A DNA stretch of 64,000 nt from Spirochaetia bacterium (GCA_963677925.2 CAXXYH010000003.1:1216001-1280000); one strand, 5' to 3'. Positions 12,561-45,875 are shown, counted from the stretch's first letter. A program made the numbers and translations. The notes: a model not told the origin generated them from the letters alone.

Positions 12561-12632
12561 GACACTACTCCTTGATGAAAAATTAAAACCGGCACCGGAT
12601 AATCCGATGCCGCGTATGGGTCTGTTTATAGT

Positions 12633-14225: not shown

Positions 14226-14419
14226 CAGTCCATTTCTCCTGAAAGTTCTTTATCTACTTCGTATTTCTCGGCAAACCAGGCCCTTGCTTCATCCATTTCT
14301 TCAGTCGATACCTCGCCTCCCGAATTCCATTTCAGGAATCCGAAAACCGCACAGCCGGCTGCAGATAATACTGTAAGGATAAAAGCAAGGAAAACCGACA
14401 GATCAGGGATTCCAAGCAT
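14225..14419 (-). CDS. Small symporter accessory membrane protein
   Basis: MLGIPD...TM...CAVFGFLKWN; stop overlaps the SSS start. Confidence 0.8.
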   Translation of the reverse strand: MLGIPDLSVFLAFILTVLSAAGCAVFGFLKWNSGGEVSTEEMDEARAWFAEKYEVDKELSGEMD

Positions 14420-29007: not shown

Positions 29008-29064
29008 ATCAGTTTATTCCTGCTCTATTAATCGGCCTGGGCCCATGTAAATTATAGGAAAAAA

Positions 29065-30702
29065 CTATCTCCTATTCAAATCAAGCGCATAATTTGCCGC
29101 ATGCTCAAATGTATCAATAAAATGTATTTTTTCTGTGGTTTCAGTTATACCGCTCCGGTTAAGTTCACCAAGTACAGATTCATTAACACCTGAAAAAATA
29201 ACTGTAACACCTGAGTGTCTAAGAACCCTTAAAACTCCCTTTATATTCATAAGTCCTGTCATATCAATAAATGGTACATGTCTCATCCTGATAATAAGTA
29301 TATGACAGTCACAGGCAATTGAACGTATATTCTCTGCGTAGTGTCTTGCCAGACCGAAGAACATCGGTCCGCTTATCTCATAGACACAGATATCTTCAGG
29401 AAGGTCGGAATAGCTGTCTATTATATCCCTGTCCACCTCCGGAGGAATCTTTCCGCTCATATCAGCCATTCTGCGCATAAACAGCATGGATGCCAGAACA
29501 ACACCGACTTCAATTGCCATTGTCAAATCAACCAGTACAGTCAGAATAAATGTCACCAGCAGTATCAGAATATCAGAAGCGGCTCCCCTGAAAACCGAAA
29601 CAAAGGATCTCCATTCACTCATATTATAGGCGACAACTATCAAAATACCGGCAAGCGTGGACATCGGAATTAATTTGGCAAATCGTCCGAGAAAAAGCAT
29701 TATCATCAGCAGAGTCAGAGAATGAATGATACCTGCTATCGGAGTTCGTCCGCCGTTTTTAACGTTGGCTGCTGTACGGGCAATAGCACCTGTAGCAGGG
29801 ATGCCTCCGAAAAACGGGGTTACAATATTGGCAATCCCCTGCGCTATCAGTTCAGTGTTGGAACGGTGATTACCGCTTATCATCCCATCTGAAACAACAG
29901 CCGAAAGCAGCGACTCAATACCTCCAAGCAGCGCAATTGTTATTGCAGGCTGAATATAACGGGTTAAATCACCAGGGCTGAAATGCGGGAGAATAAACGT
30001 CATGCCGGAAGGTATTTCACCGAAAAACGATTCAATAGTAGTCACCGGAAGCCCTAACAGCTGCACTGCCAGGGTTGTAACCACAAGGGCAAATATTGAA
30101 CCCGGAACCTTTGAGGTCAGCTTCTTTGACAGAAGAACAATGAGTATGGTTACAGCGGTAATTATTAACGCATAAGGATTTATTGTGTGAAGCTCTGAGA
30201 TATACAGCTTCCATTTCCCGATAAAATCAGCCGGAACAGATGCAATATCAAGGCCGAGCGCATCCTTTATCTGTGTGGAGAATATTACAAGAGCTATTCC
30301 GCTTGTGAATCCTATTATCAGCGGCTGCGGGATATATTTCAGAAGAGAACCGAATTTTATCAGTCCGAAAATAACAAGAAGAATACCGGCCATTATAGTC
30401 GAAATCATCAGTCCTTCTATTCCGTATTCCATTGCAATGCCGTTTACAATTACAATGAAAGCACCGGTCGGACCGCCTATCTGAACACGGCTGCCGCCGA
30501 GCAGTGAAATAATAAATCCTGCAATGACAGCAGTAATAATTCCTTTTTCGGGAGAAACCCCGGAAGCCACGGCAAAGGCGATCGAAAGAGGCAGTGCAAC
30601 TATTCCGACAACTATGCCGGACATTATATCAGCGCTAATCTGCTGTCTGCTTACCCCCGCCTTGAGTAGTGAAAACAATTTTGGTTTGAATATTTTTTCC
30701 AT
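29065..30702 (-). CDS. SulP family anion permease with STAS domain
   Basis: GIVALPLSIAFA, GGPTGAF, TGAIART; C-terminal STAS. Confidence 0.93.
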   Translation of the reverse strand: MEKIFKPKLFSLLKAGVSRQQISADIMSGIVVGIVALPLSIAFAVASGVSPEKGIITAVIAGFIISLLGGSRVQIGGPTGAFIVIVNGIAMEYGIEGLMISTIMAGILLVIFGLIKFGSLLKYIPQPLIIGFTSGIALVIFSTQIKDALGLDIASVPADFIGKWKLYISELHTINPYALIITAVTILIVLLSKKLTSKVPGSIFALVVTTLAVQLLGLPVTTIESFFGEIPSGMTFILPHFSPGDLTRYIQPAITIALLGGIESLLSAVVSDGMISGNHRSNTELIAQGIANIVTPFFGGIPATGAIARTAANVKNGGRTPIAGIIHSLTLLMIMLFLGRFAKLIPMSTLAGILIVVAYNMSEWRSFVSVFRGAASDILILLVTFILTVLVDLTMAIEVGVVLASMLFMRRMADMSGKIPPEVDRDIIDSYSDLPEDICVYEISGPMFFGLARHYAENIRSIACDCHILIIRMRHVPFIDMTGLMNIKGVLRVLRHSGVTVIFSGVNESVLGELNRSGITETTEKIHFIDTFEHAANYALDLNRR

Positions 30703-30769
30703 ATCTCTCAGAGGATTACCCTATCTGAGAAACAAAATCAATCAGTTTGGCTGTTTTTTCGTCAGAAAA

Positions 30770-31900
30770 TCAACCATCCTGCGAAACTACCATATTTCTG
30801 CCGTGAGTTTTTGCATAATACAGCCTGATATCGGCAGATTTCAGAATTCCCTGAATTGAACCGGTTTCCGAAAAAGCTGCAATCCCGAAGCTGGCAGTAA
30901 GCTGATATTTACCGCAGAACCGGTGTTCTGCAATTATGGTCTTTAATCTCTGAGCAAGCTGTTCAGTACTGTCCAGCGGAGTTTCGGGACAAATAATAAG
31001 AAATTCCTCACCTCCCCATCGCCCGCAGACATCCACTTCCCTGATATGTTTACTAATTATGCCGGCGAATTCCACAAGAACCTTATCACCTGTATCATGA
31101 CCGTAGCTGTCATTAACATCTTTGAATAAGTCAATATCCATCAGTATTACACTGTATTCCTTGTTATACCGTATGGTCTTTCCCGTGACTTCTTTCAGCA
31201 CCTCATCAAGTTTTCTTCTATTATACATTGCTGTAAGACTGTCCCGGATTGACTGCTCAACTAGTACAGCGTTTACTGCTTCTATCTCTTTTTTATGATG
31301 AAAGCCCCGTACAAAACTGCGGTAATTCAGACTGATAAGAATAAAAGCGATCATCCCGTTGGAGATTACATCTGCACTGTAGCTTGATAAAATGATCTCC
31401 GGATGATATACCGGAAGAAGTATCAGAGCCGCAACACTAACTGCTGCATAACATATAAAACCCTGAATGTAATCAAGATAGAAAATTACCGCTATTCCGT
31501 AAAGCGCTGCGATATATATGGTAGGAATTCGTCCAAGATCGGCTTCAATCAGAATAAACCGGTAAAGAGCTATACCCATACCGGAAATAATGAAAAGCTG
31601 GACAAATATCTGTTTGGCAAATATTTTGGCTTTAAGCCCGGTTTTCATAAAAAGAAGACTGAATATCACAAAAAAAGCCATCAATAAAGATGAATATATA
31701 TAAACTGTCTTCATCAGAGATGGAATGTTGCTGACCCTGAAAGCATAAAACAGCTGTTCAACTACCAGAAATGCAGAAATTATGAGAATTCTGAATACAT
31801 TATTTTCAGACTGGTAGGTCCTGAATTCGAGTTTTTCACCGGGCTCAATCGGCTGACCGAATACGCTGATTTTAAGTTTTACAAACGTTTCCATTAACAC
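30770..31900 (-). CDS. Membrane diguanylate cyclase
   Basis: About 6 TM helices; RWGGEEF with RxxD I-site. Confidence 0.92.
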   Translation of the reverse strand: MLMETFVKLKISVFGQPIEPGEKLEFRTYQSENNVFRILIISAFLVVEQLFYAFRVSNIPSLMKTVYIYSSLLMAFFVIFSLLFMKTGLKAKIFAKQIFVQLFIISGMGIALYRFILIEADLGRIPTIYIAALYGIAVIFYLDYIQGFICYAAVSVAALILLPVYHPEIILSSYSADVISNGMIAFILISLNYRSFVRGFHHKKEIEAVNAVLVEQSIRDSLTAMYNRRKLDEVLKEVTGKTIRYNKEYSVILMDIDLFKDVNDSYGHDTGDKVLVEFAGIISKHIREVDVCGRWGGEEFLIICPETPLDSTEQLAQRLKTIIAEHRFCGKYQLTASFGIAAFSETGSIQGILKSADIRLYYAKTHGRNMVVSQDG

Positions 31901-31960
31901 TTCGGAACCATACTAAATCGATTAACCCAAAACTTCAATATGGACACTGTTCAGTTTCTG

Positions 31961-33556
31961 CTAATTATCCTGAATAATGATGTCCCCATCGGTAAAATAT
32001 GCAATTGAATTTTTACCTGAATTTTTTACCTTGTACATTGCTGTATCAGCTTCATTGAGTATCCGATCAAGATTTTCATGATTACCGCCTTCAACAAGGC
32101 TTACACCGATACTTGCTCCAATATTTATCTCATGTCCTTTGATTATGAGTTTCTCATCTATTGCAGTTAGAATTTTTTTTATTACGATATCACACTCTTT
32201 TTCACCGGACACACGGGGAAGAAGCACTATAAATTCATCGCCTCCATACCGTCCTACCGTATCAGAACTGCGAAGGACCGACCTCATTTTATGCCCGATA
32301 TTCTGAAGAAGCAGATCACCTACATCATGGCCAAACTGATCATTGACATTCTTGAATCCGTCAAGATCAATGAAGCAGACGGCAATTTTATAATGATATC
32401 GGTCAGCAAGCTCCAGCTGCCTTGTAATTCTGTCGAAAATCAGATTTCGATTCGGCAAATCTGTCAGGTTGTCATAGAGGGCGGCATGTTCCATTGATTT
32501 ACGGTATTTATTCCGCTGTATTATTATCCTGGATATAAGCAGAGTCCCGACAATATCAAACAATAAAATAATCAGAGCAAGAATGGTATACCGGTATTGA
32601 AAATCTTGGGGTCCCATTCCGAATTCCTCTGCTCTTATAAAGTGAATAAGAAACCAGGAATTTTCTGAGTTATCAATAAAATCAAGCTCCTCATAGGGGT
32701 TTATCTTTAAAGCTGAAACCAGAACCCTATTTTTATAAACCTGATAAAAATCATTATTCTGCATAGACTCCCAGACTTGAGGACATTCAAGGCTGAAAGA
32801 AACTGCCTCCCGATCTGGGAACATGAACCCCCATTCTTTTTCAGGATCATTACGGTAAAGCCAGTCGCCGTTTTCATTAGCCAGAAAAAAACTTCCCGGA
32901 TTATTCAGGGTCAGGTTTTCAAAAATATCAATCAAATTATGCCCCAGAAAATTCAGTACAACAGCGCCCTTCAGTTCACCGTTATGATAGACAGGACTTC
33001 CTATCCGAATCATTGGCTTTAAAGGTTTTTCAATCCTTCCGTTCTCTATATTCAAATCAAACAGTGAGATGTAAACCTGGCCTTCATGAAGTTTAACTGT
33101 CTCTGTAAAATAATACCTGCTATATTTATCCTGCAGCTGTTCTTCTGAAACAAGTACAGGCTTTCCATCAACCAGATTAACACGAACAATTTCCATTCCG
33201 GTTTCATCAATATATCGAACCTGATCAAAGACTCTCTTATTTTCGCTGAAATTAAGCAGATCCTGCTGCAGTTTATTTTTTTCGAGACCTGTTTCAATCA
33301 GGCTGTGCAGTGATGATAAAACAGTCAGAAATTTCACATCGTAGACAAGTTCCTTATAATAATCTGAAACAATTTCTGACTGAGCCTGAAGCAGCCGTTC
33401 AGAATCACGACCTTGCGTATTTATATGTTCTGATCTATGAGAGAGGACAGAGATAGTATATATACCGAAACTTAATACTATTACTGCTGAAAGTGTTTTG
33501 GCGACGATACTTCCTGACGCTAAAGCTTCTTTTAAAATCTTTTTATATTTATGCAT
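31961..33556 (-). CDS. Cache-sensor diguanylate cyclase
   Basis: Periplasmic Cache (DQVRYID, LQDK..RYYF, DLNIE); RYGGDEF. Confidence 0.92.
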   Translation of the reverse strand: MHKYKKILKEALASGSIVAKTLSAVIVLSFGIYTISVLSHRSEHINTQGRDSERLLQAQSEIVSDYYKELVYDVKFLTVLSSLHSLIETGLEKNKLQQDLLNFSENKRVFDQVRYIDETGMEIVRVNLVDGKPVLVSEEQLQDKYSRYYFTETVKLHEGQVYISLFDLNIENGRIEKPLKPMIRIGSPVYHNGELKGAVVLNFLGHNLIDIFENLTLNNPGSFFLANENGDWLYRNDPEKEWGFMFPDREAVSFSLECPQVWESMQNNDFYQVYKNRVLVSALKINPYEELDFIDNSENSWFLIHFIRAEEFGMGPQDFQYRYTILALIILLFDIVGTLLISRIIIQRNKYRKSMEHAALYDNLTDLPNRNLIFDRITRQLELADRYHYKIAVCFIDLDGFKNVNDQFGHDVGDLLLQNIGHKMRSVLRSSDTVGRYGGDEFIVLLPRVSGEKECDIVIKKILTAIDEKLIIKGHEINIGASIGVSLVEGGNHENLDRILNEADTAMYKVKNSGKNSIAYFTDGDIIIQDN

Positions 33557-33619: not shown

Positions 33620-33654
33620 AAAAAGGCTGTCCGGAGATTACTCACGGACAGCCT
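33620..33654 (-). terminator. Terminator of the decarboxylase operon
   Basis: AGGCTGTCCG/CGGACAGCCT stem plus U-tract on the minus strand. Confidence 0.8.
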
Positions 33655-33674
33655 GAATTGAAACCGTTTTTAAA

Positions 33675-34844
33675 CTAATTAAGCGACAACAGAACACCCG
33701 CAGCAATTGCAGAGCCTATAACTCCGGCTACGTTGGGGCCCATTGCGTTCATAAGCAGGAAGTTGCCCGGATCTTCTTTCTGGCCGACCTTCTGTACTAC
33801 CCGCGCAGCCATCGGTACAGCAGATACTCCTGCGGCTCCGATCATCGGATTGATCTTTCCGCCGCTTATCTTGCTCATCAGCTTTCCAAGCATAACTCCG
33901 CCGCCGGTTCCTACTCCGAATGCTATACATCCGAGTACTATAATGAATATCGTCTCAAATGTAAGGAAGTGGTCGGCTGACATCTTTGAACCTACTGATA
34001 TTCCAAGGAATATCGTTACTATGTTGATAAGCTCGTTCTGGGCTGTCTTTGAAAGCCTGTCTACAACTCCGCATTCCTTGAACAGGTTTCCAAGCATAAG
34101 CATTCCGATAAGCGGTGCTGATGCCGGAATAAGCAGGGCTGTAACTATTGTTGTGATTATCGGGAAAAGAATCTTGGTCCGTTTTGAAACAGGCTTCGGA
34201 TCCTCCATCCTGATAAGTCTTTCCTTCTTGGTTGTAAGAGCCTTGATAATAGGCGGCTGTATAATCGGTACAAGCGCCATATACGTATAGGCTGCTACTG
34301 CAATAGGTCCAAGCAGATGCGGTGCAAGCTTAGATGTGAGATATATAGCTGTAGGACCGTCAGCCCCTCCGATTATTGCGATGGAAGAGGCCTCTGCAAA
34401 GTTGAAGCCCAGATCATGCGCAGCAAGAAAGGGGATTGCTCCAAGAGCCTTGGCTCCAAGCAGGGTTATAAATATACCAAGCTGGGCAGCTGCTCCCAGA
34501 AGAAAGGTCTGCGGCTTGCCCAGAAGCGGTCCGAAGTCCGTCATCGCTCCGATTCCCATGAAGATAATCGGCGGGAACAGTCCAAGCTGAACACCCTGAT
34601 AAAAGTAATATATAAGTCCGCCGGCCTGGTCTCCGATTGGTCCTTCCAAAAGCCCTGTAAGCGGAAGGTTTACCAGTATTGCTCCGAATCCTATCGGGAT
34701 AAGCAGCAGCGGCTCATAACCCTTTGCTATTGCAAGGTAAACAAGCAGACAGCCGATTGCAATCATTACCAGGTTCTGCCAGGTGATTGCCGTGAAGGCG
34801 GTGCTGCTTAGAAATCTTAATATTAGATCTACGAAATTCACCAA
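33675..34844 (-). CDS. Na+-translocating decarboxylase beta subunit (OadB/MmdB/MadB family)
   Basis: [29 protein letters not shown] and [12 protein letters not shown]. Confidence 0.95.
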
Positions 34845-34853
34845 ATCCCTCCG

Positions 34854-35330
34854 TTAGCCGATGTCTACAAGCGGCTGTCCTTCGGTTACGTTTGTACCCG
34901 GAGTTACATGGATGGCGTTTACTGTACCGGCGTTGCTTGCAAATACTTCAATGTCCATCTTCATTGCTTCCATTATCAGAAGAAGATCTCCCTTGGCTAC
35001 GCTTGCGCCCTGGGCTACCTTGATTTCCTTGATTGTTCCTGTTATTGCAGCCTTCTCGGTTCCGGCTCCGGCTGCTACAGGGGCGGCGGCTGGTGCCGGC
35101 GCGGCGGCTGCGGGAGAGGGTGCTACAGCTGCCGGTGCAGGCGCTGCCGGTGCAGCAGGAGCTGCAGGCGCAGCGGGCGCTGCTACAGGAGCTGCTGTTG
35201 CTCCTGCAGGGGTTGCAAGGCTTACAAGGTAACTATCGCCTTCATGCTCAATTGTAAGGACATTTCCGTTTCTTGTTACGTTTATGTCGTAAAGGGTTCC
35301 TTCATATTCAAACTTAATATTCTTGCTCAT
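34854..35330 (-). CDS. Biotin carboxyl carrier subunit (MmdC/MadF-like)
   Basis: Ala/Pro linker and EAMKM biotinylation motif. Confidence 0.93.
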   Translation of the reverse strand: MSKNIKFEYEGTLYDINVTRNGNVLTIEHEGDSYLVSLATPAGATAAPVAAPAAPAAPAAPAAPAPAAVAPSPAAAAPAPAAAPVAAGAGTEKAAITGTIKEIKVAQGASVAKGDLLLIMEAMKMDIEVFASNAGTVNAIHVTPGTNVTEGQPLVDIG

Positions 35331-35335
35331 AACTC

Positions 35336-35722
35336 TTATACTCCTGGTGCTTTTCTTGTGATTTTATTGTTTGCGACCCACGGGTCATACTTTGCTGCTC
35401 CCGCTGAACTCCATCCTGAAGCCTTTGGGGCATTCTGCTCATCTTCCTCAGCTGCCAGAAACGCTGATACCGCAGCCGAAAGCCATTTCGCGTTATCGGC
35501 CATTGTAGCAGTTGCTGCTGCAACTATTACTGGCAGGGGCAGGCCGCCGCTCTTCTTTGCTGAAGATGTCCCGGCAGATTTCGGCGCTTTGCTTTTGGCT
35601 GTATCACCGTCTGCAAATTTCTTTATCAGAACCATCAGCAGACTCAGAAGGACCAACAGTGTAAACACTATCAGTATTCCAAGTATTGATGTCATAACAC
35701 TGTAAATAAATTCTTCCTGCAT
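35336..35722 (-). CDS. OadG/MmdD-like membrane anchor subunit
   Basis: N-terminal TM GILIVFTLLVLL, AAVSAF and a late W..AG motif; operon position. Confidence 0.8.
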   Translation of the reverse strand: MQEEFIYSVMTSILGILIVFTLLVLLSLLMVLIKKFADGDTAKSKAPKSAGTSSAKKSGGLPLPVIVAAATATMADNAKWLSAAVSAFLAAEEDEQNAPKASGWSSAGAAKYDPWVANNKITRKAPGV

Positions 35723-35737
35723 AAAACTCTCCGCCTC

Positions 35738-37288
35738 CTACAGTGGTATATTGCCGTGTTTCTTGGCAGGTCTGTCTTCACGCTTTTTGATGTTGATTTC
35801 AAGCGCTCTGATGAGTTCTGCACGGGTGTATTCGGGGTCGATTATGTCATCTACAAGACCTAGGCCTGCGGCTACGTAGGGGTTCATGAACTCTGTCTGG
35901 AACTCTGCTATCTTTTCCTGTCTCTTTGCTTCAGGATCCGATGCTGAGTTGATGTCCTTTCTGAATATGATGTTTGCTGCGCCCTCTGCTCCCATTACTG
36001 CTATTTCTGCTGTCGGGTATGCAAGGACTCTGTCATATCCAAGAGACTTGGATGACATTGCTATCATTGAACCGCCGTAGGACTTTCTCATAATCAGTGA
36101 AATCTTGGGCACTGTCGCCTCTGCTATTGCGTAGAGGATCTTTGCTCCGTGTCTGATGATTCCGCCGTGCTCCTGGGCAACGCCGGGAAGGTAGCCGGGG
36201 ACATCAACAAGTGTGATTACCGGAATATTGAAAGCATCACAGAAGCGGATGAACCTTGCTCCCTTATCTGATGAGTTGATATCAAGTGAGGCAGCCATGA
36301 ACTTGGGCTGGTTTGCAAAGATACCTACAGTGCGGCCGTTGAGTTTTGCAAAACCTACTACTACGCTTTTTGCGAAGTCTTCCTGTACTTCAAGAAATGA
36401 ACCTGCGTCAAAGGCGCTTCCGATTATGTCGCGTACATCGTAGGGCTTTCTTGCCTCTTCGGGGATGATCGACATGATTTCGGGTGTGGTTCTTTCAAGT
36501 GAATCTGTACAGGCACTTACCGGCGGCTGCTCTGTGTTGTTTGAAGGCAGGTAGTCCATAAGTCTTCTGATGAAATCAAAACATTCCTGCTCGGATGAAA
36601 AACGGAAGTGGGCGACTCCGCTTTTTGCACAGTGAGCTGATGCTCCGCCGAGGTCTTCGTGGCTGATTACCTCACCGGTTACTGTCTTTATTACATCCGG
36701 ACCGGTGATGTACATGTGACTTGAACCGTCTACCATGAATATGAAGTCGGTGATGGCCGGTGAGTAAACTGCACCTCCGGCACAGGGACCGAGTATTACT
36801 GAAAACTGGGGGATAACTCCTGATGAAAGGGTGTTATTCCTGAAAATTTTGGCGTATCCGTTGAGTGAGAGTATTCCCTCCTGGATTCTTGCTCCGCCTG
36901 AATCGTTGACCTGGATAAACGGTGAACCGTTTTTTAGTGCAAGGCTCTGGGCCTCTGCAATCTTTTCGGCATGCATTTCTCCAAGTGAACCGCCGAGAAC
37001 GGTAAAATCCTGGGCTGACAGGAATACCTGCTTGCCGTTCATCTTGCCTGTTCCGGTTACGACTCCGTCGCCGGCAAACTTGTTTTTATCCATGCCGAAC
37101 TGACTGGTGCGGGTCTGGATGTATGCCTGGCTTTCAACGAAACTTCCCTCATCCAGAAGTCCGGTGATCCTTTCTCTGGCGGTAAATTTCCCTTTATCAT
37201 GCTGGGCTTTGATTCTGGCGTCGCCGCCGCCCTTCTGCATTTTTGCTCTGAAGTCTTTAAACTCCTGAAGCCGCTCATTGTTATTCAT
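35738..37288 (-). CDS. Acyl-CoA carboxyltransferase (MmdA/PccB-type alpha subunit)
   Basis: QDFTVLGGSLG, DSGGARIQEG, GPCAGGAVYSPA and KKHGNIPL. Confidence 0.95.
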   Translation of the reverse strand: MNNNERLQEFKDFRAKMQKGGGDARIKAQHDKGKFTARERITGLLDEGSFVESQAYIQTRTSQFGMDKNKFAGDGVVTGTGKMNGKQVFLSAQDFTVLGGSLGEMHAEKIAEAQSLALKNGSPFIQVNDSGGARIQEGILSLNGYAKIFRNNTLSSGVIPQFSVILGPCAGGAVYSPAITDFIFMVDGSSHMYITGPDVIKTVTGEVISHEDLGGASAHCAKSGVAHFRFSSEQECFDFIRRLMDYLPSNNTEQPPVSACTDSLERTTPEIMSIIPEEARKPYDVRDIIGSAFDAGSFLEVQEDFAKSVVVGFAKLNGRTVGIFANQPKFMAASLDINSSDKGARFIRFCDAFNIPVITLVDVPGYLPGVAQEHGGIIRHGAKILYAIAEATVPKISLIMRKSYGGSMIAMSSKSLGYDRVLAYPTAEIAVMGAEGAANIIFRKDINSASDPEAKRQEKIAEFQTEFMNPYVAAGLGLVDDIIDPEYTRAELIRALEINIKKREDRPAKKHGNIPL

Positions 37289-37349
37289 TCTAAGCTCCTG
37301 AATTTCCCAAAAAATTGTGAAAGAATGTAATTTAATTCTTAATACTCAA

Positions 37350-37377
37350 ATTATCCGTAATATAGATTACGGATAAT
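37350..37377. terminator. Hairpin between madM and the carboxyltransferase gene
   Basis: ATTATCCGTAAT-ATAG-ATTACGGATAAT perfect 12-bp stem; weak U-tract. Confidence 0.55.
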
Positions 37378-37404
37378 CAGATTTCCATTTATATACTAAA
37401 CTTA

Positions 37405-38166
37405 CTAGAAAATAGCGTTAACTATCAGATACCCTACTGAAGGACAAAGAAGTGTTCCAAGTCCTGTATAGAAAGTTGCAGTCATTGCACCGTAGGGAAC
37501 AAGCTTGATATCGGTAGCCGCAAGTCCGCCTGCAACACCGCTGGTTGTTCCGATAATTCCGCCGTATACCATTGCTGTAGTCGGGTTATCAAGACCGATC
37601 TTCTTGGCAATGAGCGGTGTCATAATCATTGTAAGAACAGACTTAACAACACCTGCTGCAACAGACAGGGCAACAACCGAAGAACTGACGCCCAGGGCAT
37701 CACCTGTAACAGGACCTACAATGAAGGTAACTGTACCTGCACCGATTGTTGTGAGTTCTTTAGGATCAACAAAGCCGAGTATACGGGCAATTATGACTCC
37801 TACTACGAATGAGAATATTACTCCTATAAAGAGCGATACAACGCCTGCCAATCCTGCTTTTTTAAGATTCTCCATCTTAACACCATATGCTGTTGATACA
37901 ATGGTGTAGTCTCTGAGGGCACTTCCTCCAAGTATGAGAAAACCTGCAAAAAGAGGCAGATCAGCAAGACCTTTTTTTCCGCCGGTGAATTTACCGGCAA
38001 CATATGCAAGAATAAGGGCAAGTATGATTGCAAAAGCAGATCCCATCTTTCCCTGTTTGATCATTTTTGCTACATAGTAAGCAAGAAGCATCGCAAGAGC
38101 GACAAAACCGAAAGCGAGGACAAGGTGATCACGTCCCATGATACTGTTCATTATTTTTGCAATCAT
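37405..38166 (-). CDS. madM: Malonate transporter subunit MadM
   Basis: GGKKGLAD, LRD..IVSTAYG, GTTSGVAGGLAATD and YGAMTATFYTGLG. Confidence 0.92.
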   Translation of the reverse strand: MIAKIMNSIMGRDHLVLAFGFVALAMLLAYYVAKMIKQGKMGSAFAIILALILAYVAGKFTGGKKGLADLPLFAGFLILGGSALRDYTIVSTAYGVKMENLKKAGLAGVVSLFIGVIFSFVVGVIIARILGFVDPKELTTIGAGTVTFIVGPVTGDALGVSSSVVALSVAAGVVKSVLTMIMTPLIAKKIGLDNPTTAMVYGGIIGTTSGVAGGLAATDIKLVPYGAMTATFYTGLGTLLCPSVGYLIVNAIF

Positions 38167-38540
38167 ACTTCTTCTCCTTTATCTTTACCAAGTTTGGCTA
38201 CTAATGGTACAAGAAACAGTGAAGCTATAGTTGCAATGCCTCCGGCCAGAAATGCAACCGCACCGCCGTCAACTGCAGCTACAACATTCTGGGATGCTGC
38301 CATAGCAACAACAACCGGAATGTAGATAGAACTCAGAAAAAGTATTCCGTTTTCAGTTTTTGGACTGAAACCGCCCTTTTTTGATTTTTGAACTCTTGCA
38401 GTAACAATAACCAGAAGAAGCATTGCTATACCTACACCGCCGACATTACCCCCGATGCCGATTACCGCACCAAGAATTCTGCCGATGAAATTTCCGACAA
38501 AGTAACAGGCTGCTACTATTCCAAGGCCGTATATTTCCAT
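38163..38540 (-). CDS. madL: Malonate transporter subunit MadL
   Basis: IYG, NVGGVGIAML and YIPVVVAMAASQNV; overlaps the madM start. Confidence 0.92.
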   Translation of the reverse strand: MEIYGLGIVAACYFVGNFIGRILGAVIGIGGNVGGVGIAMLLLVIVTARVQKSKKGGFSPKTENGILFLSSIYIPVVVAMAASQNVVAAVDGGAVAFLAGGIATIASLFLVPLVAKLGKDKGEEV

Positions 38541-38579
38541 ATCCTTTTCTCCTTAAACTTAAATTTGGTTTTAATAGTT

Positions 38580-39803
38580 TTATTTTTTGTCGAAGACAAC
38601 TCCGCTGTTCAGCAGTTCTTCAACTTTTTCTTTTGAATATCCGAGTTCATTCTGCAGATATTCAATTGTGTGCTCCCCAAGTCCGGGAGCCGGTGTTCTG
38701 ACTGTACCGGGAGTTTCCGTCATTTTAAACGGAGATCCGGCCATAGTTACTTTACCAACTCCGGGCTGTTCAACATCAACTATCATTTCGCGGTAAAGCA
38801 GGTTCGGGTCTTTTACAACCTTATCAATTGTGTTCAATGGTGAATACGGCAGGCCGTTTTCATCAAGAAGCTTGATCCATTCTTCGGATGTCTTCTTTTT
38901 CATTTCAACATCCAGAATTCTGACCAGTTCATCTCGGTTCTGTGTTCTGAGAGGATTAGTTTTGAAAAGTTCATGATCAGTCAGATCTTCTCTTTCAATA
39001 AGTGTACAGAATTTCTTCCAGAGAGAATCATTACCGATAGGTGTTATAACCCAGCTGCCGTCACTTGTTTCAAATGCCTGAAACGGAGTTATGGTCGGGT
39101 GAGCACTTCCGAGAGGTACGGGAATTTCACCTTTGGCAGTGTATCTGACAATTGCATTCTCAAGAATGTACACAAGACCGTCTACCATGGAAATATCTAT
39201 ATGCTGTCCTTCGCCGGTTCGGTTTTTATGCTGCAGAGCTGCAAGAATGCCGATCGCACCCTGATGCCCTGCAACTACATCACCTACAGACGAGCCTACA
39301 CGTACCGGAGCTCCGCCGAGGGGTCCTGTGATACTCATCAAACCGCTGAATCCCTGTGCAACCATGTCGTATGCCGGACGGGTTGCATACTCGGGAAGAG
39401 CATCATGTCCGAATCCGCAGATTGAGCAATAAATAATTCCGGGATTTATTTTTTTTAATTCTTCAAATGAGAAACCAAGTTTTCTCATGGTTGTCGGACG
39501 GTAGTTTTCAACTACGATATCCGCATCCTTAATCATGTCCGTCAGCAGAGCCTTACCTTCATCTTTTTTAAGATCAACACAAATACTCTTTTTATTTCTG
39601 TTAATACTGATGAAGTAGCCGCTCTGCTTACCGTCGCCTTCCTGTTCATCGATAAAGGGTCCGAAAGCCCTTGAATCATCACCGATAGGGGGTTCAACTT
39701 TTACAACATCAGCCCCCATATCTGCCAGAATCATCGTGCAGAACGGAGCAGCAAGTACATGACTAAGATCGACTATTTTAATTCCTTCCAATGCCTTTTT
39801 CAT
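38580..39803 (-). CDS. Family III CoA-transferase (CaiB/BaiF)
   Basis: AAPFCTMILADMGADVVKVE, NRNKKS, ENYRP, catalytic Asp (SVGD) and APGLGEHT. Confidence 0.93.
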   Translation of the reverse strand: MKKALEGIKIVDLSHVLAAPFCTMILADMGADVVKVEPPIGDDSRAFGPFIDEQEGDGKQSGYFISINRNKKSICVDLKKDEGKALLTDMIKDADIVVENYRPTTMRKLGFSFEELKKINPGIIYCSICGFGHDALPEYATRPAYDMVAQGFSGLMSITGPLGGAPVRVGSSVGDVVAGHQGAIGILAALQHKNRTGEGQHIDISMVDGLVYILENAIVRYTAKGEIPVPLGSAHPTITPFQAFETSDGSWVITPIGNDSLWKKFCTLIEREDLTDHELFKTNPLRTQNRDELVRILDVEMKKKTSEEWIKLLDENGLPYSPLNTIDKVVKDPNLLYREMIVDVEQPGVGKVTMAGSPFKMTETPGTVRTPAPGLGEHTIEYLQNELGYSKEKVEELLNSGVVFDKK

Positions 39804-39924
39804 AAAGGCCTCCTGTGATTTTTGTTTTCACAAAATCACTTGATCACTAATAAATTGAATTAAACACACTCTTTCACAATGTTATTTTCTTGAAACCTCC
39901 AGGGGCTCTCTTTTTTTTATGAGC

Positions 39925-39959
39925 AAAAAAAAAGAGAAGTATTCTGACACTACTTCTCT
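39925..39959 (-). terminator. Attenuator terminator in the leader of the CoA-transferase/mad operon
   Basis: Minus strand AGAGAAGUA-GUGUCAGAA-UACUUCUCU followed by a long U-run. Confidence 0.85.
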
Positions 39960-40030
39960 AATACACGCGTTAATAAAATTTCACTACAGGGACTGAACAC
40001 TAATACACACTAAATTTTTTCAGTCCTGTT
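39945..40030 (-). promoter_or_regulatory. UAG/UAGUG repeat cluster, probable HutP-binding antitermination site
   Basis: Plus-strand CACTA at 39948, 39982, 39998 and 40008; CTAATACAC at 39958 and 40000; overlaps the terminator 5' arm. Confidence 0.65.
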
Positions 40031-40046
40031 TATACACAAATAAATA

Positions 40047-40469
40047 TTATTTTAAATGCATAACCCCAAGCGCACACCGCTCATGGTTTGTTATTGGATA
40101 GAAGGCGGAATCACCGTAAATCGCAACAGCAACCCATTCCTCATTGGTAACAATGCCCACCTTAAGTTTCAGGCTGGCCTCTGCCGGAACACTGCTGATA
40201 ACACCGTTAAGCGCTTCAAGGGCAGCATGAAGAACAGCATGAACCTGCGTTCCGGTTTTTTTGATCAATCCATTCTGAAGTGAACAACCGACGATTGATT
40301 TTACAAAACTCTTCTTGATATCGGAGGTCAGACCGGTAATAAAAGTCACCGCAAGTTTTTCCTTTCCGATAGTGTTATTGACTTCGGCCTTAATCTGGCG
40401 CTCTTCTTCTTCATCAGACATAGCAGCAAGAAGTGCCATTTTTCCAATACGATCCGTATTCAACTTCAT
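40047..40469 (-). CDS. HutP-family RNA-binding antiterminator
   Basis: RIGKMALL start, HAVLHAALEALNG and WVAVAIYG...HE..LGVMHL resemble B. subtilis HutP, including the His metal ligands. Confidence 0.85.
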   Translation of the reverse strand: MKLNTDRIGKMALLAAMSDEEEERQIKAEVNNTIGKEKLAVTFITGLTSDIKKSFVKSIVGCSLQNGLIKKTGTQVHAVLHAALEALNGVISSVPAEASLKLKVGIVTNEEWVAVAIYGDSAFYPITNHERCALGVMHLK

Positions 40470-40554
40470 GTTTAGTCATACTACACTCGGAAATGCACAA
40501 TTGTCAATAAAAAAACTAAAGCTATCGGGGAATTTTTATCTATATATACAGAGA

Positions 40555-42765
40555 TCAACCATCAAAATTTCTATATTCACGGCTGAACCTGCCGGGTATT
40601 GCAATACAGAACGATGTTCCCTGCTTAGGTTTTGAATCAACAGTAATACTGCCGTCCAGGGCATCAACAATATTTTTCACAATGGCAAGACCAAGGCCCA
40701 TACCGCGGTGTATTTTTGTATAAATATTTTCAAGCTGCTGAAAGGGCTCAAAAATCAGAGGTAAGTCTTCCTTTTTAATTCCTGGTCCTTCATCTGAAAT
40801 TTTAAGGATGAGTTCATCCGCCAATTCAGTAATAGTACATATGATATCACCCTTATCAGAATATTTTATTGCGTTAGTAATAAGATTGTTAACAACCTGG
40901 GCAATACGGGTCTCATCTCCGTAAAAATATCCCGACTCATATTTTTTAAAAACTGACAGTTCAAGGTCCTTCATTTCCATAGAATCTCTGAAAATTTCGG
41001 AGGCAAGCATTGCCAGATTATCAATTCTGAAAAACTGCTTATTAATGGAAATTTTCCCGATACTGAACTGAGTGAAGTTCAGAAGATCCTCTATTATTGT
41101 CTTCAGGTTTTCAGAGGAAACGAGGGCAAGTTTATACCACTCACGTTCTTTATCGGTGAAAGAAGCTCCGGAGATCAGGGTGAGCATTCCGAAAACCCCG
41201 TTAAGAGGTGTCCGGAGTTCATGGCTGATATTTGCAAGAAAATCATTTTTTACTCTAAGAGCTGTTTCCGCCTTAATTCTTGCATGCTCCATCTGTTCGG
41301 ATATTTTTATTTTTTCAGTTACATCGTGTATGATCGCATATAGATATTCATGATTGCCTGTGCTAAGCCGTCCGCTGAATATCTCGACATGACGTGTGTC
41401 TTTCTTTGCAAGCTTTATTCTCATAGTCCTGCCGGATAATTCATCAAACTTGAAAGAACCTTCTTCAACATTCTCTTCATCGGCAAGCAGATTGTAAAGC
41501 GACAGATTTTTCAGAGCTTTTTCAGGATATCCAAGATAATCCATTGCAGCCTGATTCAAATCGATAATTCTGCTTGTAACCGGTTCGAACAGAATGATGA
41601 TTGATGTATTGTCATAAAAGAGACTTCTGTATTTCATTTCACTCTGACGAAGAGCTGACTCAGCCTTTTTCCTGATATTAATATTTATGAGTGAAAATAG
41701 AAGTAAAACTGCCATTATACTGAAAATGCTTACCGAACTTAGCACCAGAACCTTATTTTCCCTGAGAAAACTGTAAGGTCTGTTTATGATTTCAGAGTCG
41801 TTTGGCAGTTTTCTCAAACTGACTCCGAATCGCTTAAGTTCCTGAAAATCAAATATATAATGATTTTCAGCATCGCTCCGTATTGGCATTGAAGCCGAAG
41901 ATTCGCCGTTCAGGATTTTAAGGGCAGTTTCTGCGGCACTGATGGCCTGCTCATAATGACTAATCACCCTGCCTCCGAAAACACCGTCGCCAAAACCATG
42001 ATACCAGAGATGAAAGAGCGGGATTTTCAAATTCTCATAGATTATATTGAGGCTCTCATTGAAGAGCATGTTATTACCTTCACTATCAGTATAAGCAGAC
42101 AGGAGCAGTATACTTGTATCTCTTCCCAGACCGGAAAGAACCGCTGCAAATTCCTGCCATGAATAATCTTTAAGAGATATCGTTCTGAACTTATATGAAG
42201 GATACTCGCCCTGAAGCTCATTGAAAGCTCTTTCATCAGCAGTTCCGCTGGTAGTTGCATCTGAAATTGCTGCAATGGTTTCAGTTGAAGGGAAAAGAGA
42301 AATCATCAGCTCAATAGTATCCTTCATTGAGACGGCTTCAATGAACCCTGTAACCAGCGGATCATCATTATAACTCAGCGCCTGAGCGATATCATTAACC
42401 CCGAAAAACACTATCGGAACATCTTCAAAAAACTCATCCCGCATACTCATGCAGAAAGCAAGCGCATTATCATCAGCGGTGATTACCAAATCATATTTTG
42501 GAACATGCTGAAACTTATAGGTAATAAAATCTTTCCTGAGATTGATGACCTGTCCTGTATTAAAACGCTTTGAATCCAGGAATTCCATATCCAGAAGTAC
42601 ATGCTGCTTATCCAGTACAGAACGCAATCCGTCAATCTGATGATTGAAGGTTGGAAATGAGGGATTATATGAACTAATAAATAGGATTCTTTTAAAATGA
42701 TCATGAGCAGAGGCCGGCAGACATAACGTCAGCATAATCAGAATCAGGACACACTTCTTAAGCAT
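40555..42765 (-). CDS. Sensor histidine kinase (periplasmic ABC-binding-like domain, PAS)
   Basis: ISHELRTPLN, NLITNAIKY, DEGPG and GLGL boxes; start uncertain. Confidence 0.92.
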   Translation of the reverse strand: MLKKCVLILIMLTLCLPASAHDHFKRILFISSYNPSFPTFNHQIDGLRSVLDKQHVLLDMEFLDSKRFNTGQVINLRKDFITYKFQHVPKYDLVITADDNALAFCMSMRDEFFEDVPIVFFGVNDIAQALSYNDDPLVTGFIEAVSMKDTIELMISLFPSTETIAAISDATTSGTADERAFNELQGEYPSYKFRTISLKDYSWQEFAAVLSGLGRDTSILLLSAYTDSEGNNMLFNESLNIIYENLKIPLFHLWYHGFGDGVFGGRVISHYEQAISAAETALKILNGESSASMPIRSDAENHYIFDFQELKRFGVSLRKLPNDSEIINRPYSFLRENKVLVLSSVSIFSIMAVLLLFSLININIRKKAESALRQSEMKYRSLFYDNTSIIILFEPVTSRIIDLNQAAMDYLGYPEKALKNLSLYNLLADEENVEEGSFKFDELSGRTMRIKLAKKDTRHVEIFSGRLSTGNHEYLYAIIHDVTEKIKISEQMEHARIKAETALRVKNDFLANISHELRTPLNGVFGMLTLISGASFTDKEREWYKLALVSSENLKTIIEDLLNFTQFSIGKISINKQFFRIDNLAMLASEIFRDSMEMKDLELSVFKKYESGYFYGDETRIAQVVNNLITNAIKYSDKGDIICTITELADELILKISDEGPGIKKEDLPLIFEPFQQLENIYTKIHRGMGLGLAIVKNIVDALDGSITVDSKPKQGTSFCIAIPGRFSREYRNFDG

Positions 42766-42863
42766 ATTTAAATTATATGAAAGATGAAAGCGCAATGCAA
42801 TTATTATTTCATTTCTTCCGGCGACCCTTGAATTCCATTAAAAATAATCTGGTTTAAATTAAT

Positions 42864-44339: not shown

Positions 44340-44366
44340 TTTCATGTTCAATTTAACTGTTCAATA

Positions 44367-45107: not shown

Positions 45108-45875
45108 ATGGAAATAACTGTACTTGGGTCAGGCACGTCCTGCGGTGTTCCAACCATCAACTGCAGCTGTGATGTCTGCAGTTCCAAAGATCCCCATGAC
45201 AACAGAACCAGAGCTTCAATCTGGATACAGTCAGAGGAACTCTCAATTATCATTGATACTTCAACAGACCTCAGATTCCAGGCATTGCGGGAAAAAATTA
45301 CTGCCCTTGACTGCATTCTTATTACACATGGACATGCTGATCATATTCACGGAATGGATGATATACGCCCATTCTCTTCAAAAAGACCGATTCCGGTATA
45401 TGGAAATGAAATTACCATAAAAGAGGTTGAAGAACGTTTCAGCTATATATTCAAACTTACCCAAAGAGGCGGCGGAAAGCCCAGAATAAAGCTGAATGAA
45501 ATTAAGCCGGAAGAATATAACCTGGGCTTTAAAGTCGGTTCATTAAGAATTCTTCCAGTCCCGATGCTGCATGGTAACCTGGAGACTACCGGATACCGAA
45601 TAGGTGATTTTGCCTATCTCTCAGACTGCAGCAGTATTCCCGAAGCCAGCTTCAAAAAACTTGAGGGCGTAAAATATCTGATTATTGACGGACTCAGGTA
45701 TCGTGAACATCCGACACATTTTACCATTCCCGAAGCCATGGAAGCTGCGAAAAGGATCGGTGCAGAGAAAACCTGGTTTACCCATCTTTGCCATGATTTC
45801 AGTCATAAACAGTTAAAGCAGAAGCTGCCTGACGGCTTTGCTCCTGCTTTTGACGGGTTAAAAATATATATATGA
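45108..45875 (+). CDS. MBL-fold metallohydrolase (PhnP-like)
   Basis: LGSGTSCGVP..C.C..C and THGHADH. Confidence 0.9.
   Translation: MEITVLGSGTSCGVPTINCSCDVCSSKDPHDNRTRASIWIQSEELSIIIDTSTDLRFQALREKITALDCILITHGHADHIHGMDDIRPFSSKRPIPVYGNEITIKEVEERFSYIFKLTQRGGGKPRIKLNEIKPEEYNLGFKVGSLRILPVPMLHGNLETTGYRIGDFAYLSDCSSIPEASFKKLEGVKYLIIDGLRYREHPTHFTIPEAMEAAKRIGAEKTWFTHLCHDFSHKQLKQKLPDGFAPAFDGLKIYI

Follow-up and report, generated by a model that had tools for sequence, protein, structure and literature searches.

The window analysed here, a stretch of 64,000 nucleotides from a Spirochaetia bacterium, contains seven co-directional ORFs on the minus strand at 33675–39803, which encode, in order, a family III CoA-transferase, MadL, MadM, a single-chain carboxyltransferase, an OadG-like anchor, a biotin carrier and an OadB-type beta subunit. 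All features placed below lie on this strand unless noted. These gene families and their order are established by the present analysis: the initial annotation had reported such a run, and we found every ORF at its annotated coordinates, with family scores in agreement. MadL (125 aa; 38163–38540) and MadM (253 aa; 37405–38166), whose genes overlap by 4 nt, both score above the NCBI equivalog cut-offs for the malonate transporter (small subunit, TIGR00807, 127.8 against 113.45; large subunit, TIGR00808, 307.7 against 236.3), and the MadM locus is the only one in the whole genome. In a review, MadLM is characterised as a malonate symporter that depends on Na+.

The four genes that follow madM have the layout of a methylmalonyl-CoA decarboxylase (Mmd), as had been claimed for them. 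They encode a carboxyltransferase of the Mmd/PCC-beta type (alpha, 516 aa; 35738–37288; PF01039 Carboxyl_trans, 633 bits; best PDB matches 1vrg and 1x0u), an OadG-like membrane anchor (delta, 128 aa; 35336–35722), a biotin carboxyl carrier protein (gamma, 158 aa; 34854–35330; PF00364 Biotin_lipoyl, 59.6 bits) that contains an EAMKM biotinylation motif and a linker rich in Ala and Pro, and a Na+-translocating carboxybiotin decarboxylase (beta, 389 aa; 33675–34844; PF03977 OAD_beta, 539 bits; TIGR01109, 520.4 against a cut-off of 190.6). The anchor is marginal by score (PF04277 OAD_gamma, 26.0 against 27; TIGR01195 oadG_fam, 31.4 against a cut-off of 36.05); it has a hydrophobic helix at the N terminus, its gene position is conserved, and its counterpart at locus L009 scored 53 bits. 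The same four-subunit layout is found in the Mmd Na+ pump (EC 7.2.4.3) of Veillonella and Propionigenium. However, the window pump shows linkage to MadLM and a CoA-transferase rather than to genes for mutase, MeaB or epimerase, its second copy is linked to an aminotransferase and an acylating aldehyde dehydrogenase, and its carboxyltransferase falls below the TIGR01117 mmdA cut-off (780.1 against 998.8).

Could this be a classical succinate-to-propionate system, or an oxaloacetate or glutaconyl-CoA decarboxylase, that happens to have a dicarboxylate transporter nearby? The four-gene layout would fit Mmd/Gcd-type pumps. On the other hand, the alpha subunit belongs to the acyl-CoA carboxyltransferases of the PCC-beta/MmdA type, the OadA models match the biotin carrier only, via its biotinyl domain (55–67 bits against cut-offs of 756–892), and the oxaloacetate decarboxylase beta models stay far below cut-off on the beta subunit (443 against 820). 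Furthermore, the whole genome contains no methylmalonyl-CoA mutase (the control search was positive in 8 of 14 reference genomes), so the pump cannot serve a succinate-to-propionate route in this genome. We consider this explanation highly improbable.

The Malonomonas rubra malonate decarboxylase Na+ pump (mad, EC 7.2.4.4) shares MadL/MadM, a biotin carrier and an OadB-family membrane carboxybiotin decarboxylase with the window operon. However, the window operon is without the MadA/MdcA ACP-transferase, the ACP and the split MadC/MadD carboxyltransferase, it has no adjoining MdcG or CitG-type cofactor genes, and its beta subunit fails the Malonomonas-type model TIGR03136 (only 170 against a cut-off of 596.9). 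The initial annotation had noted that these ACP-type components were missing, and they proved absent both from the window and from the whole genome, which is 99.63% complete. A full mdc/mad ACP set elsewhere, which could have accounted for MadLM, was likewise not found: the genome-wide search gave no match to the malonate ACP (PF06857) and a single one to MdcA/MadA (PF16957), of 19.8 bits, which is below the cut-off and carries an internal stop codon. The thioester carrier here would instead be free CoA, loaded by the family III CoA-transferase.

This CoA-transferase of the CaiB/BaiF family (407 aa; 38580–39803; PF02515 CoA_transf_3, 424.9 bits) scored far under the cut-off in all NCBIfam equivalog models (best 354.9 against 700). 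Among known structures, it comes closest to human SUGCT (9br6, 299 bits) and E. coli YfdE (4hl6, 273 bits), and the Asp in its GxxxxDxxxG stretch, presumably the catalytic residue, aligns with that of SUGCT. SUGCT, YfdE and the formyl-CoA transferase Frc belong to the same fold family over the full length of PF02515, but the genomic partners of the window enzyme are MadLM and a Na+ pump. Its nearest characterised relatives, SUGCT and YfdE (the latter an acetyl-CoA:oxalate transferase), have small dicarboxylates as substrates, and the public names of its relatives are either generic or "CoA:oxalate CoA-transferase". We propose that it is an acetyl-CoA:malonate CoA-transferase. In a tree of 96 sequences, the MadLM-linked transferases do not form one clade but fall in at least three scattered places. 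The closest metagenomic relatives (56–61% identity) lie mostly in contexts other than MadLM, with a TRAP transporter and a TauE sulfite exporter or with a ChrA-like transporter, which indicates that the transferase family as a whole is not malonate-specific.

Two features were not part of the initial annotation, namely a HutP-family gene at 40047–40469 with its terminator-containing leader, and a 99.0% identical duplicate of 33620–37267. The HutP-family gene, the only one in the genome, is the first gene of the operon and encodes a 140-aa protein (PF09021, 108.9 bits) that scored 39.9 against the NCBIfam HutP equivalog cut-off of 155 and only 27 bits against the B. subtilis HutP structures, with the HxxxH motif and the C-terminal His aligned. 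Ahead of it lies a sigma-70-like promoter candidate (TTGACA-18-TAGTAT; 40478–40507; 10 of 12 consensus matches), which is a consensus match only, as promoter-like sites are not enriched in the region (21 against a shuffle mean of 16.7). The 243-nt leader between this gene and the CoA-transferase gene (39804–40046) contains a hairpin, five UAG triplets and an intrinsic terminator, AGAGAAGUA-N9-UACUUCUCU and then a U run (39925–39959), whose 9-bp stem is present in both the MFE and centroid structures and whose 5' arm carries UAG/AAG triplets. It escaped a simple terminator scan, which allows loops of at most 8 nt, as its own loop has 9 nt. The 287-nt stretch examined contains six UAG triplets, five of which precede the terminator or lie within it, and the fold z-score of the whole leader is only −1.55, no better than shuffles.

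The HutP-family protein is proposed to be an RNA-binding antiterminator. The L-histidine/Mg2+-activated HutP of Bacillus subtilis, a member of the same Pfam family, has a similar arrangement in the hut operon: first gene, then intrinsic terminator, then catabolic genes. However, no hut genes lie downstream in the window, and its UAG triplets are spaced unlike the NAG sites of B. subtilis hut. For HutP, a 2025 review on RNA-binding antiterminators names hut operons of Bacillus only. We also examined 40 MadLM loci from the 45 MadM-positive genomes among 401 Negativicutes-class genomes, and 23 of these 40 classical ACP-type mad clusters share with the window operon a HutP-family gene (32–45% identical to that of the window). 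At locus L164 it lies directly 5' of MadA-ACP-MadC-MadD, in a cluster that also holds MadB, MdcG-type genes and MadL-MadM-CitG, and a terminator is found 3' of every HutP-family gene in these clusters. The regulator links the operon to classical malonate clusters, which lends independent support to a malonate reading. A covariance model built from 21 of the Negativicutes leaders did not find the leader of the window, and the HutP-family part of our model is its weaker part.

How could these genes work together? The most likely function, judging from gene content, is that malonate is imported, converted to malonyl-CoA by CoA transfer and decarboxylated by the Na+ pump. Transcription would start ahead of the HutP-family gene and stop at the intrinsic terminator of the leader unless the HutP-family protein, loaded with its ligand (we propose malonate and Mg2+), bound the terminator's 5' arm, which is rich in UAG/NAG, and permitted read-through. 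MadLM would take up malonate with Na+, and the CoA-transferase would turn malonate and acetyl-CoA into malonyl-CoA plus acetate. The membrane beta subunit would then couple decarboxylation of carboxybiotin to Na+ export, with the OadG-like anchor holding the complex together. The net reaction would be malonate + H+ → acetate + CO2, at zero ATP cost and with a gain in the Na+ gradient; we infer the substrate, the CoA donor, the ion and the co-transcription of the operon, as well as the ligand and RNA target of the regulator, from the genes and their arrangement. The initial annotation had proposed the same import, CoA transfer and Na+ export, and the conserved synteny and the absence of an ACP set and of a methylmalonyl-CoA mutase argue for it. 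We regard it as probable that the eight genes form a catabolic operon for energy-conserving malonate decarboxylation via free malonyl-CoA.

The same net conversion of malonate to acetate and CO2 with Na+ export is described for the M. rubra mad pump. In 1994, Dehning and Schink reportedly observed malonate activation by CoA transfer and an avidin-sensitive malonyl-CoA decarboxylase in extracts of Sporomusa malonica, that is, the same chemistry as proposed here, acetyl-CoA:malonate CoA transfer followed by a biotin-dependent malonyl-CoA decarboxylase. The cycle is therefore less new than the initial annotation had supposed. The literature searched gave no gene assignment for the Sporomusa malonyl-CoA route, which to date has been described in cell extracts alone, and the operon offers candidates for its genes.

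Could the pump decarboxylate methylmalonyl-CoA instead? By sequence it is an ordinary Mmd-type pump, and that sequence would fit malonyl-CoA and methylmalonyl-CoA alike. With the same architecture, methylmalonate (or another small 2-substituted malonate) could be imported by MadLM, converted by the transferase to methylmalonyl-CoA and then, by a true methylmalonyl-CoA decarboxylase, to propionyl-CoA and propionate. The pump is equally near to both kinds of module: its carboxyltransferase is 57.8–58.1% identical to those of the mutase/epimerase-linked modules of Halanaerobium and Acidaminobacter and 58.5–58.6% identical to the malonate- and aldehyde-dehydrogenase-linked copies of Acidaminobacter, and within that genome these two copies have the mutase-linked one as their sister. 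The position of PccB D422, which is Ile in the window carboxyltransferase, does not discriminate, because the 12S transcarboxylase uses methylmalonyl-CoA and yet has Leu. A 3-hydroxyisobutyryl-CoA-hydrolase-family gene (387 bits against 274) after the aldehyde-dehydrogenase-linked pump copy of Acidaminobacter hints at branched C4 metabolism. Against methylmalonate stand the MadL and MadM scores above the malonate-transporter cut-offs, the presence of the regulator's relatives in the same clusters as MadA and the malonate ACP, and the lack of a methylmalonyl-CoA epimerase gene beside either pump copy, unlike at L118 and L119. Furthermore, in the environment, free methylmalonate is rarer as a substrate than malonate. 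We judge the methylmalonate route unlikely.

The pump itself is duplicated. A 3648-bp block (33620–37267; no strand assigned), comprising the four pump genes except for the 21 nt with which the carboxyltransferase gene begins, recurs at G000:C3:362687–366334 with 99.013% identity (blastn; 36 mismatches, no gaps). Of these differences, 34 are silent and fall within the beta and carboxyltransferase genes, another replaces a residue (I396V) and the last is located in a spacer. This pattern indicates that both copies are maintained under purifying selection. The second copy adjoins a class III aminotransferase, whose best structural match is the taurine:2-oxoglutarate aminotransferase 6jix at 477 bits, and a CoA-acylating aldehyde dehydrogenase, which reaches 553.6 bits with the SauS model (cut-off 600). 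In Acidaminobacter, aminotransferase and CoA-acylating aldehyde dehydrogenase genes also lie directly upstream of a pump copy, which is 98.1% identical to the MadLM-linked one. This second context indicates the same thioester, as beta-alanine would be converted via malonate semialdehyde to malonyl-CoA, although the two enzymes could equally convert beta-aminoisobutyrate to methylmalonyl-CoA.

Did the pump, then, land beside MadLM merely by a recent duplication? The CoA-transferase and MadLM might serve another purpose (e.g., biosynthetic malonyl-CoA) or another acid, and the pump only the aminotransferase/aldehyde dehydrogenase pathway or some other. The duplicate is sharply bounded and has a higher G+C (0.48–0.51) than its flanks (0.39–0.44), and the 116-nt spacer between madM and the carboxyltransferase gene contains a promoter-like site and a perfect 12-bp inverted repeat without a U tail, ATTATCCGTAAT-CTAT-ATTACGGATAAT (37350–37377); in the second copy, a CCGTAA-N8-TTACGG repeat lies about as far from the start codon. 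Many relatives of the transferase lie in unrelated contexts, and Halanaerobium congolense has CoAT-MadL-MadM without an adjacent pump. Co-transcription, and even functional coupling, of the madM side and the pump is putative in this genome, and the search of RNA runs gave none that contains the locus. However, Acidaminobacter, of a different phylum, has the same gene order with a spacer of only 44 nt, and CoA transfer from acetyl-CoA without a decarboxylase would leave the donor unregenerated. A chance adjacency is thus quite unlikely.

The synteny, a point on which the initial annotation had suggested a check, is indeed conserved, and the gene order recurs in other phyla. Among 24 genome loci encoding a relative of the transferase, the full cluster is present in a 99%-identical Spirochaetia MAG, which keeps both pump copies, a point against chance adjacency, the full CoAT-MadL-MadM-CT-OadG-BCCP-OadB order in the Acidaminobacter MAG (50–69% protein identity), and CoAT-MadL-MadM in H. 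congolense. The transferase adjoins MadLM in none of the 40 Negativicutes MadLM loci. Among 80 metagenome loci, CoAT-MadLM occurs in one (L055), HutP-CoAT in one (L064) and a Na+ pump beside the transferase, without MadLM, in three (L040, L048 and L053), the last of which also speak against chance adjacency. Halanaerobium has one Mmd-type pump elsewhere in its genome, which could accept the malonyl-CoA and weakens the argument from its lone cassette. In Neobacillus, the CoAT is oriented divergently from a unit of crotonase, MadL and MadM that comes with a GntR regulator; this would appear to be the same activation cassette, combined with a decarboxylase candidate of another, non-pumping type.

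The minus-strand region 33675–39803 carries seven ORFs separated by short gaps or overlaps, and their Pfam and NCBIfam matches bear out in every part the seven-gene description of the initial annotation, which had proposed an ACP-free, CoA-transferase-driven module for Na+-pumping decarboxylation of malonate (or methylmalonate). The first gene encodes a full-length family III CoA-transferase (PF02515 positions 1–366 of 366, 424.9 bits). It is followed by MadL and MadM, both of which pass the NCBIfam equivalog models of the malonate transporter (TIGR00807, 127.8 against a cut-off of 113.45; TIGR00808, 307.7 against 236.3). The carboxyltransferase (CT) is one chain of 516 aa that covers positions 2–493 of PF01039 (633 bits) and scores below the mmdA subfamily model (TIGR01117, 780.1 against 998.8). 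The OadG-like anchor is marginal (26.0 against 27; 31.4 against 36.05), the biotin carrier has an Ala/Pro linker and an EAMKM motif, and the beta subunit belongs to the OadB family (TIGR01109, 520 against 190.6). All of these parts are members of known families.

We consider it fairly likely that the operon carries out malonate decarboxylation by CoA transfer combined with a Na+ pump, in four steps. MadLM would bring malonate in with Na+, the transferase would swap CoA between acetyl-CoA and malonate, the CT would move the carboxyl group onto biotin with regeneration of acetyl-CoA, and the beta subunit would decarboxylate carboxybiotin with export of Na+. PMC8085960 describes MadLM as a Na+-dependent symporter; its text states 2 Na+ per decarboxylation for the Malonomonas enzyme, of which one is electrogenic, and its Table 6 states 1 Na+. 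The net energy gain in Malonomonas is small, and the same would hold for the window operon.

Could an ACP-based decarboxylase of the Malonomonas type (Mad) elsewhere in the genome account for MadLM? The assembly (5.04 Mb in 4 contigs, 99.63% complete), of which the window spans C3:1216001–1280000, contains MadM in single copy. Across the whole genome, the sole match to the MdcA/MadA ACP-transferase (PF16957) scored 19.8 bits against a cut-off of 25.4 and has an internal TGA, and there were zero matches to the malonate/citrate-lyase type of ACP (MadE/MdcC; PF06857). The supposition that no mdc/mad ACP set elsewhere explains madLM therefore stood. Compared with the Mad system, this genome is without the ACP-transferase and the dedicated acyl carrier protein, the split carboxyltransferase MadC/MadD has one chain as its counterpart (MdcE model, 21.8 against 32.7), and the beta subunit fails the model for the MadB-type carboxybiotin decarboxylase (TIGR03136, 170 against 596.9) while passing the general beta model; the MadL/MadM transporter is common to both. 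On the other hand, the four-subunit layout of the methylmalonyl-CoA decarboxylase Na+ pump (Mmd), with a single-chain CT, a small anchor, a biotin carrier, and an OadB-family beta subunit, is matched, with the reservation that the anchor is marginal and the CT falls short of the Mmd alpha subunit model. The Mmd supply of (S)-methylmalonyl-CoA by mutase and epimerase is lacking, as no methylmalonyl-CoA mutase (PF01642) was found in the genome and no epimerase lies beside either of its two pump copies, unlike the mutase/epimerase-linked pump loci L118 and L119. Because the genome has no such mutase, the pump cannot serve a succinate-to-propionate pathway, which we ruled out. In the other MadM-positive genome of the phylum (G397, locus L030), a 3.6-kb contig that also encodes MdcG and a biotin protein marks the system as classical.

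The nearest solved structures to the transferase are human succinate-hydroxymethylglutarate CoA-transferase (SUGCT, 299 bits), a small-dicarboxylate enzyme, and E. coli YfdE (273 bits), which is likewise active on small dicarboxylates. The Asp of its GSSVGDVVAG motif, presumably the catalytic residue, aligns with the SUGCT Asp. None of the seven NCBIfam models for the characterised specificity group (formyl-CoA, oxalate, mesaconate, glutarate, carnitine) was passed, the best score being 354.9 against 700. For the 120 closest clusters listed, public names are either generic or read ‘CoA:oxalate CoA-transferase’ or ‘carnitine dehydratase’, and malonate occurs in none of them. A quick tree of 96 relatives placed the MadLM-linked transferases in at least three places, with the window, a Spirochaetia MAG, and Halanaerobium together, Acidaminobacter and the metagenome locus L055 in another part, and Neobacillus far off; a single malonate clade was thereby ruled out. 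The malonate assignment of the window transferase is based on its own neighbours and not on clade membership.

A 56–61% identical metagenomic group lies beside TRAP transporters and a TauE sulfite exporter, or beside a ChrA-like transporter. At two metagenome loci (L033 and L034), transferases 60–61% identical to that of the window are flanked by a TRAP transporter (DctPQM) on one side and a TauE/SafE sulfite exporter on the other, which may point to activation of a sulfonated acid, for example sulfoacetate, by some members of the family. The transferase family probably covers several small acids, perhaps with sulfoacetate among them.

A scan of one genome per species gave 24 loci encoding a relative of the transferase, the neighbours of which were examined by tblastn. 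The Spirochaetia MAG carries the entire block at ~99% identity, with the upstream kinase and HutP-family genes included, and an Acidaminobacter MAG keeps the order CoA-transferase–MadL–MadM–CT–OadG–biotin carrier–OadB at 50–69% identity, with a dCache histidine kinase and a sigma-54 response regulator before the cluster and an NhaC-type antiporter after it. Halanaerobium congolense has CoA-transferase–MadL–MadM alone among unrelated neighbours. In Neobacillus sp. PS3-12 (L028, 7438–11203), the transferase is divergent to a unit of a crotonase-family gene, MadL, and MadM, and a GntR/FCD regulator adjoins; no OadB-family gene was found in that genome, which is a candidate for a pathway variant without a pump, in which a crotonase-type enzyme would decarboxylate malonyl-CoA. 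Among the 80 metagenome loci kept, one (L055) has CoA-transferase–MadLM, one (L064) has HutP–CoA-transferase cut by the contig end, and three (L040, L048, L053) have a Na+ pump adjoining the transferase without MadLM; the majority of the remainder were too short to judge or in other contexts. We also took a sample of 401 genomes from the Negativicutes, the class to which Sporomusa and an Acidaminococcaceae MAG belong; 45 had MadM, and the transferase was beside MadLM in none of the 40 loci fetched (L151–L190). The proposed synteny of CoA-transferase, madLM, and pump was thus upheld, in full order in Acidaminobacter and as CoA-transferase–MadLM in further genomes. Among the 24 genome loci and 80 metagenome loci, the gene order is kept across phyla, yet it is one among several contexts for the transferase family.

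A blastn search of the window's own genome revealed that 33620–37267 is repeated at C3:362687–366334 with 99.0% identity, 36 mismatches, and no gaps. The duplicated block comprises the four pump genes minus the first 21 nt of the CT gene. Silent differences number 19 in the beta gene and 15 in the CT gene, the sole residue change is I396V in the CT, one further difference falls in the CT–anchor spacer, and the anchor and carrier genes are identical. Because nearly all differences are silent, we conclude that both copies are maintained, possibly with gene conversion.

Did the pump block merely land beside a transferase–MadLM cassette? The duplication boundaries are sharp, the G+C of the pump block is higher, and a 116-nt spacer with a 28-nt palindrome (37350–37377) lies between madM and the CT gene, all of which would suit such an event; however, the same order recurs in Acidaminobacter, and we regard this second rival as very unlikely. 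The palindrome consists of two perfect 12-bp arms around a 4-nt loop, lacks a U tail, and may serve as an operator or in the processing or stability of RNA. At a comparable position, the second pump copy carries CCGTAA-N8-TTACGG, with flanks that are otherwise unrelated.

Besides the pump copy that would work on malonate after CoA transfer, the second copy lies outside the window, at 10667–14280 of locus L005 (C3:352000–371999). There, an NCS2 permease and two small ORFs (126 and 146 aa; no family match) precede the pump, which is divergent to genes for a CoA-acylating aldehyde dehydrogenase and a class III aminotransferase. The dehydrogenase scores 553.6 against 600 with the SauS model, and its best structures are an acylating succinate-semialdehyde dehydrogenase and AdhE; the best structure for the aminotransferase is taurine:2-oxoglutarate aminotransferase (6jix, 477 bits). 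Replacing the sulfonate of taurine and sulfoacetaldehyde by a carboxylate gives beta-alanine and malonate semialdehyde, and by this analogy the simplest reading is a second feeder that would convert beta-alanine into malonyl-CoA, the thioester proposed from malonate too. A route from beta-aminoisobutyrate to methylmalonyl-CoA fits as well. The second locus may represent an energy-conserving pathway for beta-alanine or a related amine. An SSS-family symporter and an IS1595-type transposase were also seen in its vicinity.

Acidaminobacter has three Mmd-type pump modules (L009, L117, L118). The first follows CoA-transferase–MadLM; the second, 98.1% identical to it in DNA, follows the dehydrogenase–aminotransferase pair on the same strand; and the third, 82.9% identical, follows mutase, MeaB, and epimerase in a canonical Mmd operon. 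At the second module, the dehydrogenase is apparently frameshifted in the assembly, and a gene of the 3-hydroxyisobutyryl-CoA-hydrolase family comes after the pump copy. The related Spirochaetia MAG has two beta genes as well. In a tree of 14 carboxyltransferases, the mutase-linked CT of Acidaminobacter was sister (SH-aLRT 99) to the other two copies of that genome, and the window CT is nearly equidistant from all three (57.8–58.6% identity). From this grouping, the pump is an ordinary Mmd-type enzyme recruited via lineage-specific duplication and does not form a malonyl-CoA decarboxylase family of its own. Malonyl-CoA is presumably also accepted by the enzymes of Veillonella and Propionigenium, which would ease such recruitment.

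The main rival keeps the architecture and makes methylmalonate the substrate; we judge it unlikely. No residue separating malonyl-CoA from methylmalonyl-CoA was found among the positions examined. Work by Diacovich et al. in 2004 is said to have identified D422 of PccB as a specificity position. The window residue at its equivalent is Ile, but the enzymes of T. maritima and Sulfolobus, an acetyl-CoA carboxylase, and the 12S transcarboxylase, which uses methylmalonyl-CoA, have Ile or Leu there as well, so this Ile, being common to enzymes of different substrates, was discarded as a marker. The unusual Met of GGSMIAM was discarded too, as it is absent from the Acidaminobacter and Peptococcaceae homologues.

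Independently of these enzymes, regulation also bears on the malonate reading. The genome has a single HutP-family gene, which immediately precedes the seven genes at 40047–40469 (PF09021, 108.9 against 25) and has a promoter-like site ahead of it. Its product fails the HutP equivalog model (39.9 against 155) and is remote from B. subtilis HutP (27 bits); nonetheless, the HxxxH pair and the C-terminal His, which we take to be Mg2+ ligands, are aligned. The 243-nt leader between this gene and the transferase gene contains a hairpin, five UAG triplets, and an intrinsic terminator at 39925–39959 (AGAGAAGUA-N9-UACUUCUCU and a U run, with a 9-bp stem). The layout of regulator gene, terminator, and then structural genes is the same as in the B. 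subtilis hut operon, which controls histidine utilisation, whereas the window regulator precedes CoA-transferase, madLM, and pump genes. According to a review, HutP with L-histidine and Mg2+ binds NAG triplets in the hut operon and blocks terminator formation. The hut-type arrangement is two sets of three NAG with 4-nt spacers, compared with irregular spacing of the five UAG triplets before or in the window terminator.

In 23 of the 40 Negativicutes MadLM loci, a HutP-family gene 32–45% identical to that of the window stands just before madA. At L164, a cluster of the classical Malonomonas type, the order is MadB, biotin ligase, HutP-family gene (1066–1597), MadA, ACP, MadC, MadD, AMP-binding protein, MdcG, MadL, MadM, and CitG. 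Each of the Negativicutes HutP-family genes is then followed by a conserved AUANUGG...GAGAG motif leading into a terminator. This HutP-family branch is a regular part of malonate decarboxylase clusters, and it consequently ties the window operon to malonate independently of MadLM. A covariance model made from 21 Negativicutes leaders found no match in the window leader or in L006, L064, L009, L007, L028, L055, L117, L030, and L005; its only match was a terminator at 44308–44361 (E = 2.4). The leader of L064, the closest HutP–CoA-transferase contig, aligns poorly with that of the window. The model thus did not demonstrate a leader element common to the window and the Negativicutes, and we infer a putative antitermination mechanism here from the layout, not from a conserved RNA.

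A wider reading, which we put forward tentatively as a possibility, takes this HutP branch as the dedicated RNA-binding antiterminator of malonate operons and the pump as a plug-in cassette with two feeders. Malonate would be sensed, perhaps as an Mg2+ chelate in the L-histidine/Mg2+ pocket of HutP, and the branch would serve both the ACP-type clusters of Negativicutes and the CoA-type cluster of the window. The pump would have been duplicated and kept near-identical so that two feeders can use it, namely, CoA transfer to malonate, and beta-alanine via the taurine-type aminotransferase and the SauS-type dehydrogenase. If true, the beta-alanine feeder would be an undescribed energy-conserving anaerobic route. 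To our knowledge, HutP, a textbook antiterminator, is known solely from histidine utilisation, and its relatives in malonate operons suggest a possible second job. The available part of a 2025 review of RNA-binding antiterminators names HutP solely for hut operons.

In the literature searched, mostly outside subscription journals, we found no gene-level description of an operon combining MadLM, a family III transferase, and an Mmd-type pump, no HutP-family regulator of such an operon, and no twin-feeder pump duplication. The same chemistry was reportedly described in 1994 work on Sporomusa malonica. We know of a gene-level account of decarboxylation-driven growth on malonate only for the ACP-based Malonomonas system, and of the free-CoA malonate route only from extracts. 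The operon supplies candidates for the genes behind that route and behind EC 2.8.3.3 activity, and a proposed substrate for one branch of CaiB/BaiF, a very large family whose members are mostly unassigned. Furthermore, the evolution of the Na+ pump appears modular, with the same Mmd-type module copied onto different feeder genes in two phyla.

Several neighbours of the operon were also noted. Immediately before the HutP-family gene and in the same orientation, 40555–42795 encodes a histidine kinase with an ABC-type substrate-binding-like sensor and a PAS domain, with no response regulator adjoining. This kinase is 84% identical in the related MAG, where the operon genes are mostly 96–99.6% identical (biotin carrier, 84%). 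Downstream, 27778–33556 on the same strand encodes two GGDEF diguanylate cyclases (one with a Cache-type sensor), an EAL phosphodiesterase, and a SulP/DauA-like C4-dicarboxylate transporter (493 bits against a cut-off of 614). At 45108–45875, an MBL-fold hydrolase scores 325.8 bits against 360 with the ‘GPMC system’ model, named after Geobacter and Pelobacter.
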